From the sequence record OM386665.1: DNA of 64,000 bases; one strand, 5' to 3'. Numbering within the stretch: the stretch's first letter is position 1; every line of letters starts with the position of its first letter. The notes beneath the pieces are model-generated. The model was given only the letters and a program-made list of their open reading frames with translations, was not told where the DNA came from and ran no database searches. Positions 3,919 to 7,700 of this stretch are shown one piece after another. A program made the translations under genes and the position numbers. This DNA is from Escherichia phage vB_EcoM_ESCO56.

Positions 3919-3994
3919 TGGAGAATCCGAAGGGACTTGAACCCTTATAAACCTGTTTTGCAGACAGGCACATATCCATTTCTGTCACGGATTC
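3919..3994 (-). tRNA. tRNA-Cys (anticodon GCA)
   Basis: Hand-folded: acceptor GAATCCG/CGGATTC, anticodon loop CTGCAAA, T-arm AAGGG-TTCAAGT-CCCTT, discriminator U, encoded CCA. Confidence 0.8.
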
Positions 3995-3999
3995 AAAAT

Positions 4000-4092
4000 T
4001 GGAGGAAGATACCAGACTTGAACTGGTACACCGATTTCTCAGCTACTGGCAGTTTAGCAAACTGCTCCCTTACCTTTTAGGGTTAATCTTCC
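4000..4092 (-). tRNA. tRNA-Ser (anticodon GCU), class II with long variable arm
   Basis: Acceptor GGAAGAT/ATCTTCC, 3-bp D-stem, anticodon stem GCAGT/ACTGC with loop TTGCTAA, about 21-nt variable arm, T-loop TTCAAGT, encoded CCA. Confidence 0.7.
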
Positions 4093-4093
4093 A

Positions 4094-4828
4094 TTATCTT
4101 TGTAATGCGCTCTTCATTTCTGGTGTTGCAATAGTATCAATCACACCAGTTTTACAAGCATCATCAAACCAGTCTGGTAAGATACCTGCTAAGAACCCAT
4201 TGATATTCGTTTTAAGGTACTCTGCAATAAGGGCAGCTTCTTCTTCAATCATCTGCACAACTTCATCTGCATAAGCTGTAATCTTTGAGATACCTTCATT
4301 AATCTTACTAACAGCCTGATTAGCTAAATCAGAAATAGTCTCAAGACCCTCATCAATAGCGTCTTGTAAGTCACTTAACACACCGTTAACACTGTCTAGT
4401 GTGCTGTTAATCATGTCAATAGCTTGCTGACCATACTCTGTAGCAACACCCATAATACCACTAAATGGTGTACAACCAACTTGTTCTCCTGCTGCACCCA
4501 TAACATTGGAGTATCCCTTTGCTACCTGCATACGTGATGAAAACTCATCAATAGACTTTTGACCGTAGTCTGTTAGGGTCTTAGTAGTTGCTGTAGTGCT
4601 TGTAAGGCTTGTTGTAAAACTGTTTAGAAGGACTGTTGTAAGTCCAGCAGCAACAAGCTTCTCCTTCATTGTAGGGTCTGTTACAGAGCTAATAGAGCTT
4701 ACAAGTGATGTAGAGGCAGCTACGGTTCCACCGAGAACTGCTGCACCAGTAATAAGTGGGTTAGAAAACCCTCTACCGGTTTTTAAGAGATTAAAAATCT
4801 CCTTACCTTGTTCTGTCATCTCTTTCAT
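4094..4828 (-). CDS. hypothetical protein (Ser/Thr-rich, coiled-coil C-terminus)
   Basis: Track ORF 4094..4876 overlaps the tRNA at 4845-4923; trimmed to ATG at 4828 (MKEMTEQ...) with AAAGGTG RBS. Confidence 0.55.
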   Translation of the reverse strand: MKEMTEQGKEIFNLLKTGRGFSNPLITGAAVLGGTVAASTSLVSSISSVTDPTMKEKLVAAGLTTVLLNSFTTSLTSTTATTKTLTDYGQKSIDEFSSRMQVAKGYSNVMGAAGEQVGCTPFSGIMGVATEYGQQAIDMINSTLDSVNGVLSDLQDAIDEGLETISDLANQAVSKINEGISKITAYADEVVQMIEEEAALIAEYLKTNINGFLAGILPDWFDDACKTGVIDTIATPEMKSALQR

Positions 4829-4844
4829 TAAGCACCTTTGAAAT

Positions 4845-4923
4845 TGGTACTCCATATCGGATTCGAACCGATACATAACACAGATTTTAAGTCTGGCCTC
4901 TCTGCCAATTGGAGTAATGGAGC
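4845..4923 (-). tRNA. tRNA with anticodon UAA (Leu-decoding) but class-I length
   Basis: Acceptor GCTCCAT/ATGGAGT, Leu-like D-arm (3-bp stem, loop CAATTGGCAGA), anticodon loop CTTAAAA, short variable loop, T-arm ATCGG-TTCGAAT-CCGAT, A73, CCA. Confidence 0.65.
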
Positions 4924-4925
4924 AT

Positions 4926-5001
4926 TGGCGGGGGATGTTGGAATTGAACCAACTTCTTCGATTTCAAAGACCGAGGTTTTAACCTTGTAAACTAATCCCC
5001 T
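4926..5001 (-). tRNA. tRNA-Gln (anticodon UUG)
   Basis: Anticodon stem TCGGT/ATCGA with loop CTTTGAA, T-arm GTTGG-TTCAATT-CCAAC, discriminator G; 1:72 apparently unpaired. Confidence 0.75.
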
Positions 5002-5009
5002 TTAAATCT

Positions 5010-5567
5010 TTACTTTCTCAGTGGATGAATAAAGAATGCCAACATAACTCTTTCCCTTGAGAATGCTCTTTCTTCTGGGACAACGCTTTTTAGTTTCCAT
5101 CCAATATAAATTCTCCAGTAAAACTGTTTACCAAAGATTTTAATTGATGGGATAAAAGCGAATAATCCCCAAGCATTGCTATTCCACATTAGGAGATAAC
5201 CAGTCTGATTATCTTCAGGGTCAGAACTTACGTTGATATTACCTTTCCACTTAGTAACATCTTTTACATCTCTTCCTAATACATGGTAAGAGAAGTTATA
5301 AGCTTTGTTTCTCCAGAGCCATCCAACTCTCTGCATGTAGACACCCAGCTTACCAATCTCTCTAATCTTAGCCCAGCGTTTGACGTGGCCTTCATCACCA
5401 TCAATCGGGTTGTCATAGGTCTCCATCCATCTGAATCCAAAAGGTAGATGTCCTTTCTTCTCGCTGTAGAATGGAACCACGAAAGGTGCTAAGATGACTG
5501 CTAGGGTTGCTGCAAATGGTTCTAGTAAAGCTAGGAAAATCCATGAAGCATACTTCAAATATCTCAT
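5010..5567 (-). CDS. hypothetical protein (hydrophobic N-terminus, probable membrane protein)
   Basis: 185 aa ORF with AAGAGG RBS 9 nt upstream of ATG at 5567; N-terminal hydrophobic stretch WIFLALLEPFAATLAVILAPFVVPF. Confidence 0.6.
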   Translation of the reverse strand: MRYLKYASWIFLALLEPFAATLAVILAPFVVPFYSEKKGHLPFGFRWMETYDNPIDGDEGHVKRWAKIREIGKLGVYMQRVGWLWRNKAYNFSYHVLGRDVKDVTKWKGNINVSSDPEDNQTGYLLMWNSNAWGLFAFIPSIKIFGKQFYWRIYIGWKLKSVVPEERAFSRERVMLAFFIHPLRK

Positions 5568-5586
5568 CTAAATAGCCTCTTAAGAT

Positions 5587-5664
5587 TGGTGTTCCAAGAC
5601 GGATTCGAACCGTCACTAATACAAGGTTTGAGCTTGCATCCTCTGCCAATTGGGATACTGGAAC
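5587..5664 (-). tRNA. tRNA with anticodon CAA (Leu-decoding) but class-I length
   Basis: Acceptor GTTCCAG/TTGGAAC, D-arm TCC-CAATTGGCAGA-GGA, anticodon stem GCAAG/CTTGT with loop CTCAAAC, T-arm GACGG-TTCGAAT-CCGTC, A73, CCA. Confidence 0.65.
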
Positions 5665-5665
5665 A

Positions 5666-5740
5666 TGGTACTCACTAAAGGACTTGAACCTTTTTCTTCA
5701 TCTTGTAAGGGTGATGTTTTACCATATAAACTAAGCGAGT
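5666..5740 (-). tRNA. tRNA-Val (anticodon UAC)
   Basis: Acceptor ACTCGCT/AGTGAGT, D-stem GTTT/AAAC, anticodon loop CTTACAA, T-arm AAAGG-TTCAAGT-CCTTT, A73, CCA. Confidence 0.75.
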
Positions 5741-5835
5741 GTAGAAGAGGTCTGAAGTTGTGCCGCTAACTCAACTCCGTGGAATTTGTTACGGTCTTCA
5801 GTTGACACCAGCGGTCTTTCACTTGACCTCTGAAT

Positions 5836-5912
5836 TGGTGCTGCTCACAGGACTTGAACCTGCATTTCCATCCTTACAAGGGATGTGTAATAGCCAATTA
5901 TACGAAAGCAGC
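5836..5912 (-). tRNA. tRNA-Thr (anticodon UGU)
   Basis: Acceptor GCTGCTT/GAGCAGC, anticodon stem CATCC/GGATG with loop CTTGTAA, T-loop TTCAAGT, A73, CCA. Confidence 0.75.
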
Positions 5913-5919
5913 ATTAATT

Positions 5920-5996
5920 TGGTACACCTAGAGAGATTCGAACTCACACTGAGCAGATTCTAAGTCTGCTGCCTCTACCAGTTGGGCTATAGGTGC
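5920..5996 (-). tRNA. tRNA with anticodon UAG (Leu-decoding) but class-I length
   Basis: Acceptor GCACCTA/TAGGTGT, D-arm GCC-CAACTGGTAGA-GGC, anticodon stem GCAGA/TCTGC with loop CTTAGAA, T-loop TTCGAAT, A73, CCA. Confidence 0.65.
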
Positions 5997-6074
5997 ATTA
6001 AATCTTTTTAGAGAACTTCTAAGAACCTAAGCAACAAGGTTCCACAACAAGCTGTAATAACCTTAGAAGCCCTC

Positions 6075-6250
6075 TAAAAAGACCTAAAAAGGTCTTTGCA
6101 TAGTCTTGTTTAATCCGGTGACTAGAACCTTTGGAGAGCTTGATATTATCTCTTCTCCGTGACACCTGCTAGGTGCTTTATGAGTGTGTACGACAATACA
6201 CGCGGGATACCAAAGCAACACCCTAATGAAGCTTGGCTTTAAATCTTATT
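6075..6250 (-). ncRNA. candidate small structured RNA between tRNA genes, ending in an intrinsic terminator
   Basis: No tRNA fold found. Minus-sense sequence carries hairpins GTGTA-TTGTCG-TACAC, CACC-TAGCA-GGTG, GGAGA..TCTCC, then AGACC-TTTTT-AGGTCT followed by TTTT (6075-6096). 5' end not defined. Confidence 0.3.
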
Positions 6251-6253
6251 AGG

Positions 6254-6341
6254 CGGTAAGTAAAGGAGTCGAACCCTCACCGTATCTCTACAGTGGCAAC
6301 TGTTTTCAAGACAGTTTGGCTACCATTAGCCGCTACCTACC
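6254..6341 (-). tRNA. tRNA-Ser (anticodon UGA), class II
   Basis: Acceptor GGTAGGT/ACTTACC, anticodon stem ACTGT/ACAGT with loop CTTGAAA, about 20-nt variable arm, T-loop TTCGACT, G73; CCA not fully encoded. Confidence 0.7.
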
Positions 6342-6354
6342 CCTAATAAGACTT

Positions 6355-6437
6355 TGGCATGGGACGGAGGAGTTGAACCCCTTTGAAACGGTGTTGGAAG
6401 CCGTTGCTCATGCCTTAGAGTCTTAACATCGTCCCAT
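6355..6437 (-). tRNA. tRNA candidate, anticodon probably CCA (Trp); D region about 7 nt longer than canonical
   Basis: Acceptor ATGGGAC/GTCCCAT, T-loop TTCAACT, G73, CCA; anticodon register inferred from distance to T-loop (loop TTCCAAC); D-arm could not be folded canonically. Confidence 0.4.
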
Positions 6438-6580
6438 ACTATAATTCGAAGCTTACCGTATTATCTCAACACTGTAAAGCCCCTTCTCAGATTATTTACA
6501 TGTTCTGGAAAACATGAGATACAGACCACCTCCCTACAGGAAGACCCGCTTAGGTCGTCTAAGTAATCTGCTAACTAAAT

Positions 6581-6662
6581 TGGTCGAGGCGGCAGGACTC
6601 GAACCCGCATACTCCACTTACTCGGTTAACGTCTGTTTAGAAGACAGATGAGATACGCCCCG
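6581..6662 (-). tRNA. tRNA-like element (acceptor and T-arm present, anticodon-like loop CUUCUAA; no D-arm resolved)
   Basis: Acceptor CGGGGCG/CGCCTCG with one G-U, T-arm GCGGG-TTCGAGT-CCTGC, A73, CCA; only internal hairpin is TCTGT-CTTCTAA-ACAGA placed too far 5' for a canonical tRNA. Confidence 0.3.
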
Positions 6663-6910
6663 TAATTATCTTTAAAGACTCTCTTAGAAAGCCCTTAAAG
6701 ATGCCCACCTTATTAATCATACCGTGGGCTAGTACGCCAAATTCTTTGATGAGGGATTGGAAGACCTCACTGGTGTTTAGCCTATCAAGCTACTGCCAGA
6801 AAAACATTGTCGTTTGCATTTATTTTAAATTTGCAAAATAGACGCTACGCAACGAAAACTAAGGGTACTATAAAGTGGTCACATCACTATTCTGCTACAC
6901 TTCCATTAAA

Positions 6911-7050
6911 TTATCTTTGTAGATAAGCTACCCAGACTTGCTTAAGGTCTGTAGCGATGTGACTTTTTGGGTTTAAATCTAGAATTTACCCTTTCACCCT
7001 TTGTGGTCGCATACTCACAGGTAAGCTTAATAACTTATCTACAAAGATAA
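6911..7050. repeat. long inverted repeat (17-bp perfect arms, about 106-bp spacer) in tRNA-array spacer
   Basis: TTATCTTTGTAGATAAG at 6911-6927 is the exact reverse complement of CTTATCTACAAAGATAA at 7034-7050. Confidence 0.8.
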
Positions 7051-7098
7051 TTACCAGACCGTTGTTTATCATCTTAACTAGATATCTCATAAAGTGTT

Positions 7099-7186
7099 TG
7101 GTGTGCCGTGTAGGAGTCGAACCTACCGAGTCTCAATGACAAGGGATTTACAGTCCCCACCGCTACCATCTACGGGATAACGACAC
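7099..7186 (-). tRNA. tRNA-Tyr (anticodon GUA), class II
   Basis: Acceptor GTGTCGT/ACGGCAC, anticodon stem GGGGA/TCCCT with loop CTGTAAA, about 14-nt variable arm, T-arm GTAGG-TTCGACT-CCTAC, A73, CCA. Confidence 0.8.
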
Positions 7187-7255
7187 ATTTAATTTCTATT
7201 CAGGCTAAGGACTTGCACCTTACAAATCGGTGAGCAATCGCTTCTCTCCTGAATT

Positions 7256-7332
7256 TGGCGGTTAGTCAGGGATTCGAACCCTGTGCCATTCGCTTAACAG
7301 GCGACCGCACATACCTTATGTGCTTCCTAACC
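7256..7332 (-). tRNA. tRNA-Asn (anticodon GUU)
   Basis: D-stem GCAC/GTGC, anticodon loop CTGTTAA, T-arm CAGGG-TTCGAAT-CCCTG, G73, CCA. Confidence 0.8.
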
Positions 7333-7416
7333 ATGTTTAGTATTACCAGACCGTATCTTTCAATTTTTCCGCTAAAAATTTAATAAACATTGCTGTAAAC
7401 GGTCTTCTGTAAAATT

Positions 7417-7493
7417 TGGAGGCGGGTGCAGGAGTCGAACCTGCCGATACCATGCTAATGAGACATGTGAGACGCCCTTTCTCTATACCCGCA
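7417..7493 (-). tRNA. tRNA with anticodon CAU (Met, fMet or Ile2)
   Basis: Anticodon stem CATGT/GCATG with loop CTCATTA (position 37 is U, unusual), T-arm GCAGG-TTCGACT-CCTGC, CCA. Confidence 0.65.
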
Positions 7494-7623
7494 ATTCTTA
7501 ATGACCAGACCAAATCTCTTCTTTGTCCGATTTACCTTCAGATGAATAAGATTAAGTTTGCTGTAATTGGTCTTCTGTCAAAACTGGCGTTCCAGAAGGG
7601 ATTTGTCTACTGGAACATTAATT

Positions 7624-7700
7624 TGGTCTCTGTTGGAGGACTTGAACCTCCGGCCTTACCGCCCCAAACGGAACGCTCTACCAAGCTGAGCTAAACAGAG
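7624..7700 (-). tRNA. tRNA-Pro (anticodon UGG)
   Basis: Acceptor CTCTGTT/AACAGAG, D-stem GCTC/GAGC, anticodon loop TTTGGGG (G37), T-arm GGAGG-TTCAAGT-CCTCC, A73, CCA. Confidence 0.8.

Follow-up and report, generated by a model that had tools for sequence, protein, structure and literature searches.

Two conserved genes for putative tRNAs of abnormal architecture, and a neighbouring tmRNA-like RNA, in the tRNA cluster of a Felix O1-like phage

Results

The tRNA cluster and its odd loci

The window analysed here, a stretch of 64,000 nt from Escherichia phage vB_EcoM_ESCO56 (OM386665.1), carries the minus-strand tRNA cluster of a Felixounavirus (Felix O1-like phage). Inside this cluster, also on the minus strand, we found two odd loci exactly where a sequence-only reading had placed two non-canonical tRNA-like elements: a tRNA-Trp(CCA)-like gene of 83 nt including CCA (locus 1, 6355..6437) and a tRNA-Arg(UCU)-like gene of 82 nt including an encoded CCA (locus 2, 6581..6662). 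Immediately downstream of locus 1, ARAGORN calls a canonical tRNA-Ser(UGA) (6252..6341, minus strand), which was used as a synteny anchor; the gene order around it is kept in relatives. Directly upstream of locus 2, and ending exactly at its base 1, lies an unannotated minus-strand RNA of around 198 nt (6663..6860) that resembles the mRNA-like domain (MLD) of tmRNA and has no tRNA-like domain (TLD).

Standard tools overlook both tRNA-like loci. ARAGORN made no call at either of them in the window, and Rfam with default filters missed both. The same held for more than 50 related loci, where the only call at either locus type was a 96-nt tRNA-Arg(tct) assigned by ARAGORN to one relative of locus 2. 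A search with tRNA covariance models, as proposed in the sequence-only reading, separated the two loci. With permissive filters only, locus 2 scored 33.4 bits over 6584-6662 with the Rfam tRNA model (RF00005, gathering threshold 29 bits), in an alignment with the D arm deleted and a 20-nt insert in the variable region, and two of its relatives scored 32.6 and 38.6 bits under the same filters; by contrast, locus 1 was not recovered as a tRNA, its best score being 16.9 bits with the tRNA-Sec model only. Single-sequence folding energies did not differ significantly from those of shuffled sequences (z = -1.56 and 0.04 for the two loci). What is decisive for considering both loci as more than chance is their conservation and covariation across phages, not their folding energy.

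Anatomy and family of locus 2

In locus 2 the acceptor stem, the anticodon arm and the T arm are all normal. The acceptor stem CGGGGCG/CGCCUCG (6662-6656 / 6591-6585), which includes a G3.U70 pair, is followed by a linker UAUCUCA (6655-6649), the anticodon stem UCUGU/ACAGA (6648-6644 / 6636-6632) with the loop CUUCUAA (6643-6637; anticodon UCU at 6641-6639), a conserved 23-nt segment CGUUAACCGAGUAAGUGGAGUAU (6631-6609), the T arm GCGGG-UUCGAGU-CCUGC (6608-6592), the discriminator A73 (6584) and the encoded CCA (6583-6581), all of them on the minus strand. The acceptor and T arms described earlier were recovered as a 7-bp stem and a covarying 5-bp stem with a 7-nt loop of GTTCRA type, and the sole hairpin does occupy the place of the D arm, starting 7 nt past the acceptor stem. 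It has a 5-bp stem and a 7-nt loop of the form C/U-U-[UCU/CCU]-A-A/C, and no D arm (a stem of 3-4 bp with a loop of 8-11 nt at positions 10-25) was found. The stretch after the hairpin had been described as 22 unstructured nucleotides; it has 23, and together with UAUCUCA it belongs to the most conserved parts of the RNA, so that it is no spacer.

The locus 2 family is widespread in phages and almost never annotated. At least 40 distinct sequences were found in 268 phage records, from Felix O1, phi92, Klebsiella T5-like, jumbo and Streptomyces phages; the copies in REP12 and VpaE1_ev035 are annotated as 'tRNA-OTHER' or 'tRNA', and annotation pipelines label copies of this type 'undetermined'. 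When IMG/VR was scanned for just the 3' motif, 42 distinct members were obtained, all of them carrying GUAUCUCA, with the anticodon loops CUUCUAA, CUUCUAC or UUCCUAA. These loops give the anticodons UCU or CCU, both for Arg, CCU being present in one family member and UCU in the others. The gap between acceptor and anticodon stems is 7 nt in all of the more than 40 members, none of which has a D hairpin. UAUCUCA is invariant, as are 18 of the 23 positions of the 3' segment, which carries a D-loop-like UGGA motif. The discriminator is G or A in 38/44 members, and CCA is encoded in 29/44.

In an alignment of 34 distinct 79-nt members (A2), 99.4% of the cells in the acceptor, anticodon and T stems are paired, and substitutions in both partners are seen in 14 of the 20 stem pairs, including all five pairs of the anticodon stem. 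The covariation score was 0.78, compared with 0.22 in shuffled alignments (none of 500 reached 0.78) and at most 0.19 when the partners were slid. RNAalifold independently predicted the same helices; it also drew a 3-bp mini-hairpin (38-40/47-49), whose changes are all one-sided and which is disrupted in two members. A covariance model built for the family (R1) separates its members (68-103 bits; 100.2 bits for the copy in the window) from ordinary tRNAs (34 bits at most), and a search for intermediates between 68 and 34 bits, aimed at UCUCA/GAG variants, found none. The phi92-like copy is preceded by a promoter of its own (TTGACA-17-TATAGT), whose end lies 12 nt upstream of the RNA start.

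Anatomy and conservation of locus 1

Locus 1 departs from the cloverleaf in another way. Its 7-bp acceptor stem AUGGGAC/GUCCCAU (6437-6431 / 6365-6359) is followed by an invariant insert of 9 nt, GAUGUUAAG (6430-6422), where a canonical tRNA has 2 nt before the D stem, which agrees with the seven or so extra nucleotides previously noticed in the D region. The D stem has 3 bp (CUC/GAG, covarying) and the loop UAAGGCAU, and the anticodon stem AACGG/CCGUU closes a 9-nt loop, CUUCCAACA, with the anticodon CCA at 6397-6395, as the register had suggested. The T arm (AGGGG-UUCAACU-CCUCC), the discriminator G73 (6358) and the encoded CCA (6357-6355) complete this minus-strand gene. Acceptor stem and T arm had both been called clean, which is right for the former; the latter is present, but with an A49.C65 mismatch that is invariant. 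Position 31.39 is also persistently mismatched, in such a way that the Watson-Crick helix leaves a 9-nt loop and a 7-nt loop is obtained only if C.A or C.C is accepted there. The anticodon helix would thus be shifted by one pair, resulting in the 9-nt loop. Just upstream is a promoter-like site (TTGAGA-17-AATTAT, 6441..6469, minus strand), a consensus match only, whose Mooglevirus homologue reads, by eye, TTGACA-17-TAAGCT.

This locus is confined to one lineage and conserved in Felixounavirus, Mooglevirus and Yersinia phage P778; its absence from some Felixounaviruses indicates that it is dispensable. Across these three groups (alignment A3), 95% of the alignment cells in the stems are paired, and 7 pairs have substitutions in both partners, compared with none in slid controls. 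The insert does not vary, nor do G73 and the anticodon CCA; the first pair is A1-U72 in the window and G1.U72 or G1-C72 in other copies. The determinants of TrpRS are the CCA anticodon, G73 and A1-U72.

These patterns bear on the proposal that both loci are decaying tRNA pseudogenes, which persist only because the cluster is young. The silence of ARAGORN and default Rfam, the mismatches and patchy presence of locus 1 and the unremarkable folding energies would suit such decay. Against it, every stem of both families has undergone compensatory double substitutions, the linker motifs stay the same in unrelated phage families and on unrelated hosts, those of Streptomyces phages included, and the phi92-like copy has a promoter of its own. 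We consider this proposal extremely improbable, and it is strongly disfavoured. The option of degenerate tRNAs raised in the sequence-only reading is contradicted as well, structure being under purifying selection in both cases, across genera for locus 1 and across unrelated phage families for locus 2. Its option of tRNAs with unusual architecture is the one supported, by the covarying stems, the tRNA-type anticodon loops with fixed anticodons (UCU/CCU; CCA) and the agreement of discriminator and anticodon with Arg and Trp identity. From comparative sequence analysis, then, the two loci are real, conserved genes for what are predicted to be tRNAs of abnormal architecture.

The neighbouring tmRNA-like RNA

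The RNA at 6860-6663 (minus strand) starts with the motif AGUUUUCG (6860-6853) and contains an A-rich tract, AAAAUAAAU, followed by a resume codon GCA (6817-6815) that opens a tag ORF encoding ANDNVFLAVA (6817-6788). Tandem stops, UGA UAG, lie in a hairpin loop (6787-6782) and are followed by a pseudoknot (UGAGG 6769-6765 / CCUCA 6754-6750; CCAA 6760-6757 / UUGG 6740-6737), a hairpin (6729-6703) and a terminal hairpin (6702-6668). The features of a tmRNA coding domain are all present: the A-rich tract with GCA, a short tag with a hydrophobic, Ala-rich end, looped stops and the pseudoknot. As in bacterial tmRNA (ssrA), the tract has UA at -5/-4, the ten-codon tag follows the pattern AN[DE]xxx[FYLM/V]xxA and the pseudoknot is of H type. 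Unlike one-piece and permuted two-piece tmRNAs, this RNA carries neither an acceptor strand nor a T arm in cis, and whereas bacterial tags end in ALAA, the phage tags end in LAVA, LMAA or MVAA.

Ten-codon tags of the pattern AN[DE]...A were found in 15/15 lineages, pairing in the hairpin and pseudoknot is 100%, both partners having changed in 6 pairs (alignment A4), and the folding energy is low (MFE z = -3.9). Promoters place the 5' end at GUUUUCG. The RNA is spread among phages, prophages and phage-plasmids, and is unannotated in P1, lambdoid prophages, Yersinia pestis pMT1 and 690 of 5426 complete E. coli genomes. ARAGORN called no tmRNA in the window or in the related loci, and the Rfam tmRNA models scored 10-29 bits on the 6860-6581 block and its relatives, and 15-29 bits on the tmRNA-like RNA taken by itself, below their gathering thresholds of 47-84. 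Reading 6880-7100 revealed no other acceptor strand 5' of the tag ORF that would make a one-piece tmRNA, and the promoters put the RNA start at GUUUUCG. A permuted tmRNA made of the T arm of locus 2 and the 5' strand of locus 1, suggested by a 10.5-bit Rfam alignment, was discarded, as the strands are not complementary.

Could the two neighbours be a single split phage tmRNA, with locus 2 as its alanine-accepting piece, the 6860-6663 RNA as its coding piece and (A)ANDNVFLAVA as the tag on stalled chains? The exact junction between them would fit, as would the weak Rfam matches to tmRNA and permuted tmRNA across the block and the traits of the window copy, which combines G3.U70, A73 and CCA with the lack of a D stem, like a tmRNA TLD; in a subclade, moreover, G3.U70 is kept while pairs 1 and 2 covary. 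The mycobacteriophage DS6A has a 'TLD-only' ssrA (PMC4131195), with which locus 2 shares these traits, in addition to its tmRNA-like neighbour. Nevertheless, the anticodon arm of locus 2, which a TLD lacks, is complete and includes U33 and A37, and G3.U70 is no family trait, as it appears in just 7/34 members. No Rfam tmRNA family beats the tRNA model at locus 2, where the tRNA match is the only one retained, and the tmRNA class (RF00023, RF01849-50, RF04321) was rejected for it on the grounds of its anticodon arm and sub-threshold scores. On inspection, the two pieces did not base-pair with each other convincingly. In jumbo and phi92-like phages the locus 2 type occurs in records where no tmRNA-like RNA was detected, and the converse is found in Mooglevirus, Kolesnikvirus, Ackermannviridae and T1-like, N4-like, P1-like and lambdoid elements. 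We regard a split tmRNA as very improbable; the two modules occur independently in most phages, which tells against the earlier suggestion that locus 2 is a tRNA-like domain of another RNA.

A different role for the block, which we put forward as a long shot, is that of a phage device that takes over trans-translation through a promoter-driven, TLD-less coding RNA with the tag ANDNVFLAVA. The tmRNA-like RNA might dock on or antagonize the host tmRNA, or might take the adjacent RNA with G3.U70, A73 and CCA as its acceptor, in such a way that the tag put on by rescued ribosomes would be specified by the phage, or the degradation tag of the host would be left off. In enterobacterial host tmRNA, codons 3-6 of the tag (ACGAAAACU) are complementary to the invariant 5' end of the tmRNA-like RNA, (U)AGUUUUCGU, a 9-nt seed match that is weak alone (E = 0.2). 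Inside the window no partner for AGUUUUCG was found, matches being at chance level, and RNAduplex with the whole RNA against E. coli ssrA gave a long spurious duplex that was uninformative.

Discussion

Both loci probably are functional genes for structurally non-canonical elongator tRNAs, locus 2 encoding a tRNA-Arg(UCU) and locus 1 a lineage-specific tRNA-Trp(CCA), as judged from their sequences. Conservation and covariation, described above, were observed directly, and so were synteny and codon demand. In Mooglevirus and Yersinia phage P778, a canonical tRNA-Arg(UCU) occupies the syntenic position of locus 2, and the anticodon arm ACGGU-CUUCUAA-ACCGU is identical in the canonical tRNA-Arg(UCU) of ESh19 and a member of the locus 2 family (L007). 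AGA, a rare codon in E. coli, amounts to 12.3 per 1000 codons in the window, 30% of its Arg codons, and ARAGORN found no canonical tRNA-Arg in these 64 kb. Likewise, none of nine loci holding at least 10 tRNAs, examined as stretches of partial genomes, contained a tRNA-Arg(UCU) of canonical length. The two types are not strictly exclusive, as one contig carries a canonical tRNA-Arg(UCU) directly beside a locus 2 family member. Both RNAs would be transcribed with the minus-strand tRNA cluster and matured like tRNAs, and locus 2 would serve as the structurally rearranged tRNA-Arg(UCU) of the phage, decoding its abundant AGA codons.

With the canonical tRNA-Arg(UCU) of Mooglevirus and P778, the locus 2 family shares the 7-bp acceptor stem, U8 and A9, a YCUC-type 5' D strand, A14, a GGUUCGA T arm, G/A73 and the genomic slot; it differs in that the anticodon arm comes directly after A14, with no D hairpin, and in having the conserved 23-nt segment instead of a 5-nt variable loop. 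Further canonical tRNA-Arg(UCU) comparisons are E. coli argU and the tRNA-Arg of T4. In the window copy U8, A9, the 5' D-stem strand UCUC and A14 are in canonical register, and the D loop and 3' D-stem strand are missing from their usual place. The 23-nt segment contains GAG and then U-A-A-Y-U-G-G-A-G-U-A, which matches the D-loop consensus A14 R15 Y16 Y17 G18 G19 A20 .. A21. We infer that CUC(11-13) pairs with this GAG, in such a way that the D stem would enclose the anticodon arm, and that the relocated G-G-A may supply the contacts of G18/G19 with the T loop and the A20 read by ArgRS. As the nucleotides involved are invariant, this pairing and the role of G-G-A lie beyond a covariation test, and RNAalifold draws the 3-bp mini-hairpin mentioned above in place of the pairing.

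Charging by ArgRS and TrpRS, and use on the ribosome, are likewise part of the proposal. The Arg identity set comprises the Arg anticodon (C35 with U36/G36), A/G73 and A20; in the locus 2 family C35-U36 is invariant, and the invariant UGGA offers a candidate A20 outside the canonical position. The determinants of AlaRS are G3.U70, G2-C71, G4-C69 and A73, and the window copy and its subclade carry them all, so that AGA would be misread if AlaRS won over ArgRS.

An unlikely alternative would make both RNAs tRNA mimics that do not decode, acting as decoys or sponges for a host anticodon nuclease, another tRNA-targeting defence, a modification enzyme or a synthetase, and showing the anticodon stem-loop of tRNA-Arg(UCU) or tRNA-Trp on a scaffold that the ribosome or EF-Tu would refuse. 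Phage tRNAs are known to counter tRNA-cleaving defences. Extreme conservation of the non-stem nucleotides while the stems drift fits a surface for protein recognition, and the contig with canonical and odd versions side by side, as well as a fold rejected by standard detectors, points the same way. The change from UCU to CCU, however, still specifies Arg, and the T arm, the 7-bp acceptor, A/G73 and CCA are kept, as expected for a chargeable molecule that binds EF-Tu; the canonical tRNA in the syntenic slot of sister genera and the high AGA demand, with no other tRNA-Arg in the window, also speak for decoding.

Taken as elongator tRNAs, the two types have partial parallels. Mitochondrial D-armless tRNAs are also elongators with a short connector in place of the D arm, but they are short, with reduced T arms, and function together with mitochondrial factors that have co-evolved, whereas locus 2 has normal length, a full T arm and, on its 3' side, a long conserved stretch containing a motif like that of the D loop, and would need to function with standard bacterial machinery. 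All known tRNAs of that machinery were stated in 2024 to be cloverleaf/canonical (PMC11551756). Class II tRNAs also have a long region between the anticodon and T arms; in locus 2, by contrast, this region forms a hairpin of at most 3 bp with no compensatory support, and the D arm is absent. Allo-tRNAs carry an extra loop between acceptor and D arm (PMC7609411), and locus 1 resembles them in its extra nucleotides there, except that its insert is an invariant single-stranded 9-mer with no stem-loop. The anticodons found here are those for Arg and Trp, and not for Ser, Leu or Tyr. Neither family was described in the literature we covered on phage tmRNA, tmRNA mimics and D-armless or non-canonical phage tRNA-Arg, a coverage that is incomplete, so an earlier description is possible.

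Should the locus 2 RNA be aminoacylated and accepted in translation, the standard bacterial apparatus would be involved as a whole: ArgRS, EF-Tu, RNase P and the ribosome would all accept an elongator tRNA whose core wiring is not that of the cloverleaf, and locus 2 would be a natural scaffold for tRNA engineering. The tmRNA-like RNA, if functional, would provide a testable link between phages and ribosome rescue. Our reading of locus 2, if true, would also mean that standard tRNA finders systematically overlook genes of this kind in phages: the AGA decoder of Felix O1, phi92, Klebsiella T5-like and jumbo phages would now be missed, and tRNA counts and codon-supply analyses of these phages would need correcting.

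Two Elements in the Gaps of a Phage tRNA Cluster

The window comes from a Felix O1-like myovirus (Felixounavirus, Ounavirinae), and its stretch 6000-7100 shares 99.7% identity with Escherichia phage vB_EcoM_ESCO50 and has matches in 265 phage records. In the window, ARAGORN detected 13 tRNA genes, which all lie on the minus strand within 3919-7700; 11 of them were also returned by Rfam at gathering thresholds, together with a group I intron (RF00028; 38657-38981, minus strand; 53.5 bits, threshold 50). Loci 1 and 2 (6437 to 6355 and 6662 to 6581) both fall in gaps of this cluster, on its strand, and their description as two non-canonical tRNA-like elements in the sequence-only reading matches the minus strand to the base. 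Locus 1 reads AUGGGAC GAUGUUAAG A CUC UAAGGCAU GAG C AACGG CUUCCAACA CCGUU UCAA AGGGG UUCAACU CCUCC GUCCCAU G CCA, and locus 2 reads CGGGGCG UAUCUCA UCUGU CUUCUAA ACAGA CGUUAACCGAGUAAGUGGAGUAU GCGGG UUCGAGU CCUGC CGCCUCG A CCA.

The standard detectors that the same reading had named as a check recognized these elements only in part. ARAGORN made no call at either locus. With permissive filters, the Rfam tRNA model gave 33.4 bits to locus 2 (6584-6662; threshold 29), in an alignment with the D arm deleted and a 20-nt insert ahead of the T arm, and the best Rfam score of locus 1 was 16.9 bits, with the tRNA-Sec model only. Single-sequence folding energies showed no gain over shuffles (z = -1.56 and 0.04 for the two loci), and therefore the reality of the loci rests on the comparative data. 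Both are genuine elements.

Two further features of the cluster were observed. A long, unannotated hairpin-forming stretch (5993-6091, minus strand) lies beside tRNA-Leu(UAG) (5920-5996), in the gap 5997-6251 before tRNA-Ser(UGA), and gave spurious plant-miRNA-type Rfam matches of at most 30 bits. A perfect 17-nt inverted repeat, TTATCTTTGTAGATAAG / CTTATCTACAAAGATAA (7034-7050 and 6910-6926), encloses around 107 nt, at a place in the cluster that in most relatives holds tRNA-Lys, tRNA-Met and tRNA-Ile.

Locus 2 Belongs to a Widespread Family

In relatives, the coordinates of locus 2 are annotated as "tRNA-OTHER, Nd_NNN" (REP12), as "tRNA" (VpaE1_ev035) or not at all (ESCO50). When the segment alone was used in blastn, 85-88% identity was found to unrelated phages, among them the jumbo phages fEgEco12 and SP27, phi92-like and Klebsiella phages of around 146 kb, and T5-like Klebsiella phages. 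One family member as query retrieved 268 records, including Felix O1 (NC_005282, 25951-26032), phi92 (NC_023693), jumbo phages of Asteriusvirus size and Streptomyces phages, and nearly all the copies in them lack annotation. Two pattern scans of IMG/VR, one of them with the 3' motif CGAGUAANUGGAGUAUG as sole pattern, produced around 40 distinct family sequences, and GUAUCUCA was found in all real matches. In the Felix O1 record (NC_005282, 25951-26032) and other GenBank records, the homologue lies under a CDS labelled "HNH endonuclease" or "hypothetical protein".

A gap-free alignment of 34 distinct 79-nt members was 99.4% paired in the acceptor, anticodon and T stems, with both-sided changes in 14 of the 20 pairs. 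Its covariation score was 0.78, compared to 0.22 for column shuffles (0 of 500 reached 0.78) and at most 0.19 with the partners slid, and RNAalifold returned the same helices. A covariance model built from this alignment and run over 764 kb of phage sequence gave 68-103 bits to family members and no more than 34 to any ordinary tRNA, with nothing in the gap between. The phi92-like copy is preceded by a near-consensus promoter of its own, TTGACA-17-TATAGT with TG upstream, that stops 12 nt short of base 1. The family is widespread and overlooked, and locus 2 is best seen as a structurally variant tRNA.

A Rearranged D Stem Is Proposed for Locus 2

The 5' linker of locus 2, U8 A9 U C U C A14, follows the canonical register of U8, A9, the 5' strand of the D stem and A14 (compare UA-GUUC-A in the tRNA-Arg of Mooglevirus ESh19). 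The invariant 3' segment is C-R-U-U-A-A-Y-C-GAG-U-A-A-N-U-G-G-A-G-U-A-U, in which the string after GAG fits the D-loop consensus A14 R15 Y16 Y17 G18 G19 A20 .. A21. On the basis of these two features, pairing between CUC (11-13) and G40-A41-G42 is proposed. The resulting D stem would enclose the anticodon arm and not the D loop, and the D-loop-like strand would span from the D stem to the T stem, where it could make the elbow contacts of G18/G19 with the T loop and present the A20 equivalent to ArgRS.

All the nucleotides of the CUC/GAG model are invariant, so covariation is no test of this pairing. A shorter subfamily, AGYCGAGUARNYGGAUCAAY (fetched loci L208, L244, L221 and L181), retains exactly the first GAG and GGA, which fits the rearranged D stem. 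RNAalifold proposed as an alternative a 3-bp hairpin (38-40/47-49), for which only one-sided changes from U.G to C-G were found, one pair being lost in L163 and L131.

Locus 2 Probably Reads Arg Codons

Most family members have the anticodon loop CUUCUAA; some have CUUCUAC, and a single one has UUCCUAA. U33 and A37 are retained, and the anticodons that follow from these loops, UCU and CCU, both belong to Arg. Of 44 members, 38 have G or A as discriminator, and ARAGORN classed the member in L178 as a tRNA-Arg(tct) of 96 nt. Mooglevirus (Michonne, ESh19) and Yersinia phage P778 have a canonical tRNA-Arg(UCU), detected by ARAGORN, in the slot that locus 2 has in Felixounavirus, upstream of the locus 1 homologue and tRNA-Ser(UGA). 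This slot comes directly after a tmRNA-like RNA in Mooglevirus, and directly 3' of tRNA-Ile in P778, which has no such RNA. The anticodon arm ACGGU-CUUCUAA-ACCGU is identical in the tRNA-Arg of ESh19 and the family member of the jumbo phage L007. A canonical-length tRNA-Arg(UCU) was found in none of the nine fetched loci with at least 10 tRNAs, where ACG, UCG, CCG or CCU isoacceptors occur; in the smaller locus L210 the canonical and family forms stand side by side. Among the rarest codons in E. coli, where argU is limiting, AGA accounts for 30% of the Arg codons in 42 long window ORFs, at a frequency of 12.3 per 1000 codons, and ARAGORN found no canonical tRNA-Arg in the window. Several lines of sequence evidence thus indicate that locus 2 most likely has Arg identity and decodes AGA.

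A complication is that AlaRS might compete for this RNA. The window copy, with anticodon UCU, carries C1-G72, G2-C71, G3.U70, G4-C69, A73 and CCA (6585-6591/6656-6662 and 6584), and G2-C71, G3.U70, G4-C69, A73 and CCA make up an AlaRS-type determinant set. Across the 34 aligned members, pair 3:70 is G-C in 17, G.U in 7, A-U in 5, U-A in 3 and C-G in 2, and this variation implies that Ala identity is not a family trait. G3.U70 is kept in a subclade (Felixounavirus, T5-like L190, L007, L133 and L181) in which pairs 1 and 2 covary.

Locus 1 Is a Lineage-Specific Oddity

Locus 1 is 88-100% conserved in most Felixounaviruses, missing from a few, and present in Mooglevirus and P778; scanning IMG/VR with its invariant insert gave no occurrence outside these three lineages. 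Across them, the D stem changes from CUC/GAG to CAC/GUG and the anticodon helix from AACGG/CCGUU to GUAAG/CUUAC and GUAGG/CCUAC. Pairing holds in 95% of cells, and both-sided changes were seen in 7 pairs, compared to 0 in slid controls. The features that never vary are the 9-nt insert GAUGUUAAG, anticodon CCA, U33, A37, G73 and an A49.C65 mismatch. The Watson-Crick helix covers positions 26-30/40-44 and leaves a 9-nt loop, C-Y-U-CCA-A-M-M, or equivalently a 7-nt loop closed by a C.A or C.C pair. This loop might conceivably alter frame maintenance.

G73 and a 3' CCA are common to all the canonical phage tRNA-Trp genes that were aligned. Hena2 (Kolesnikvirus) encodes a canonical tRNA-Trp, and ARAGORN found none in the window. 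From its sequence, locus 1 is best read as a lineage-specific, non-essential and structurally odd tRNA-Trp; it is an oddity of tRNA type, narrower than locus 2.

A tmRNA-like RNA Upstream of Locus 2

Weak Rfam matches upstream of locus 2 led to a tag sequence at 6826-6782, AAAAUAAAU GCA AAC GAC AAU GUU UUU CUG GCA GUA GCU UGA UAG, encoding ANDNVFLAVA and two stops. It belongs to a tmRNA-like RNA with no cis tRNA-like domain (6663-6860, minus strand), which has a GCA resume codon at 6817-6815, a hairpin whose loop holds the tandem stops, and a pseudoknot with covarying pairs. Segment 6826-6702 alone has 72-82% identity to many unrelated phages, including Ackermannviridae (Det7), T1-like Klebsiella and E. 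coli phages, an N4-like Salmonella phage and an Erwinia Kolesnikvirus. Between Q and the lysis genes of lambdoid prophages the RNA was found as well, and so it was on phage-plasmids of the P1-like and pMT1/SSU5-like types, in 1154 plasmid records and in 690 of the 5426 complete E. coli genomes; essentially all copies in the records inspected lack annotation. For P1, the curated record marks nothing but a "dicF-like region" immediately upstream. This region (NC_005856 68791-68892; L395 1115-1216) ends in a terminator just before the tmRNA-like RNA, and both are part of the C1-controlled ban-operon leader, with tRNA-Asn and tRNA-Thr coming next.

The tag ORF has exactly 10 codons in 15 of 15 lineages, without indels and with variation mostly at codons 4-7 (ANDNVFLAVA, ANDAQFLAVA, ANDNTFLAVA, ANDTELLAVA, ANDDVVLMAA, ANDEQFLAVA, ANEEMYLAVA, ANEEVYLAVA, ANDDQFLAVA, ANDNQYLAVA, ANDDLMMVAA and ANEDTYLAVA). 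Pairing is 100% in the stop-codon hairpin and in the H-type pseudoknot downstream of it, and both-sided changes were seen in 6 of their pairs, compared to 0 in slid controls; relative to shuffles, the 199-nt window RNA has a far better fold (z = -3.9). The permuted, beta and standard tmRNA models of Rfam align the resume region at a sub-threshold 15-29 bits, and no acceptor strand was found 5' of the RNA. A promoter in Michonne (TTGACA-17-TAAGAT) ends 7 nt before AGUUUUCG, and similar ones were read by eye in P5026, Hena2, pMT1 and Kpn_1825.

The 3' end abuts a tRNA: locus 2 in the window, the canonical tRNA-Arg in Mooglevirus and tRNA-Leu in Hena2. Adjacency could suggest that locus 2 is the missing tRNA-like domain; this argument was set aside because the two modules occur independently in most lineages, and they are taken here as mere neighbours in a cluster of small RNAs.

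At its 5' end the tmRNA-like RNA has an invariant sequence, (U)AGUUUUCGU(C) (window 6852-6861, minus strand, UAGUUUUCGU), that is perfectly complementary to nt 97-105 of E. coli tmRNA, ACGAAAACU (K-12 ssrA, L396), which are host-tag codons 3-6, exactly those at which phage and host tags differ. With the flanks included, complementarity reaches 10-12 nt in several lineages, and ACGAAAAC is present in 80 of 117 Enterobacterales-type ssrA genes. This complementarity, noticed post hoc and with E = 0.2, may offer a weak lead on mechanism.

In T1-like, P1-like and lambdoid elements, the RNA lies within arrays of modules with near-identical closing stems (CACAACAGGUAAGRGCAUU / AGUGCUCUUWCCUGUUGUG) and variable inserts, some with T arms (L037, L100, L059, P1-like L392, L394 from an E. 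coli 55989 prophage, and L005). L100 has the T-arm module upstream of the RNA and L037 has it downstream, the module at L394 1815-1873 scores 20.2 bits to the tmRNA tRNA-like domain, and G3.U70 is absent from the array modules. Separately, long RNAs (105-130 nt) that combine a tRNA-like acceptor stem and T arm with large internal regions, none of them called by ARAGORN, were seen in L271 1013-1135 (Michonne), L270 1236-1350 (P778), L394 1737-1873 and L004 ~420-531 (Det7). Det7 (L004 845-915) and the N4-like phage UTK0002 (L006 590-660) share a conserved structured submodule, CACUUGAUYGAGGUC-hairpin-UGUAAAAUGAAUCCACRGAGUG, which is downstream of the tmRNA-like RNA in Det7 and upstream of it in UTK0002.

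Comparison with Known Systems

A literature search, not exhaustive, found no published description of either the locus 2 or the tmRNA-like RNA family. The phages listed for ssrA in a 2014 census are mycobacteriophages and Bacillus phage G only, with a "TLD-only" form in DS6A among them (PMC4131195). The tmRNA-like RNA is a find separate from the loci and potentially the more surprising one.

According to a 2024 study, every bacterial tRNA known is canonical (PMC11551756). Locus 2 departs from the cloverleaf definition at the D arm, and its nearest structural precedents are the mitochondrial D-armless tRNAs, which act with specialised factors (PMC7609411). Judged from sequence, locus 2 evidently derives from tRNA-Arg(UCU) and would work much as it does, and a putative decoding function of the two loci is well motivated.
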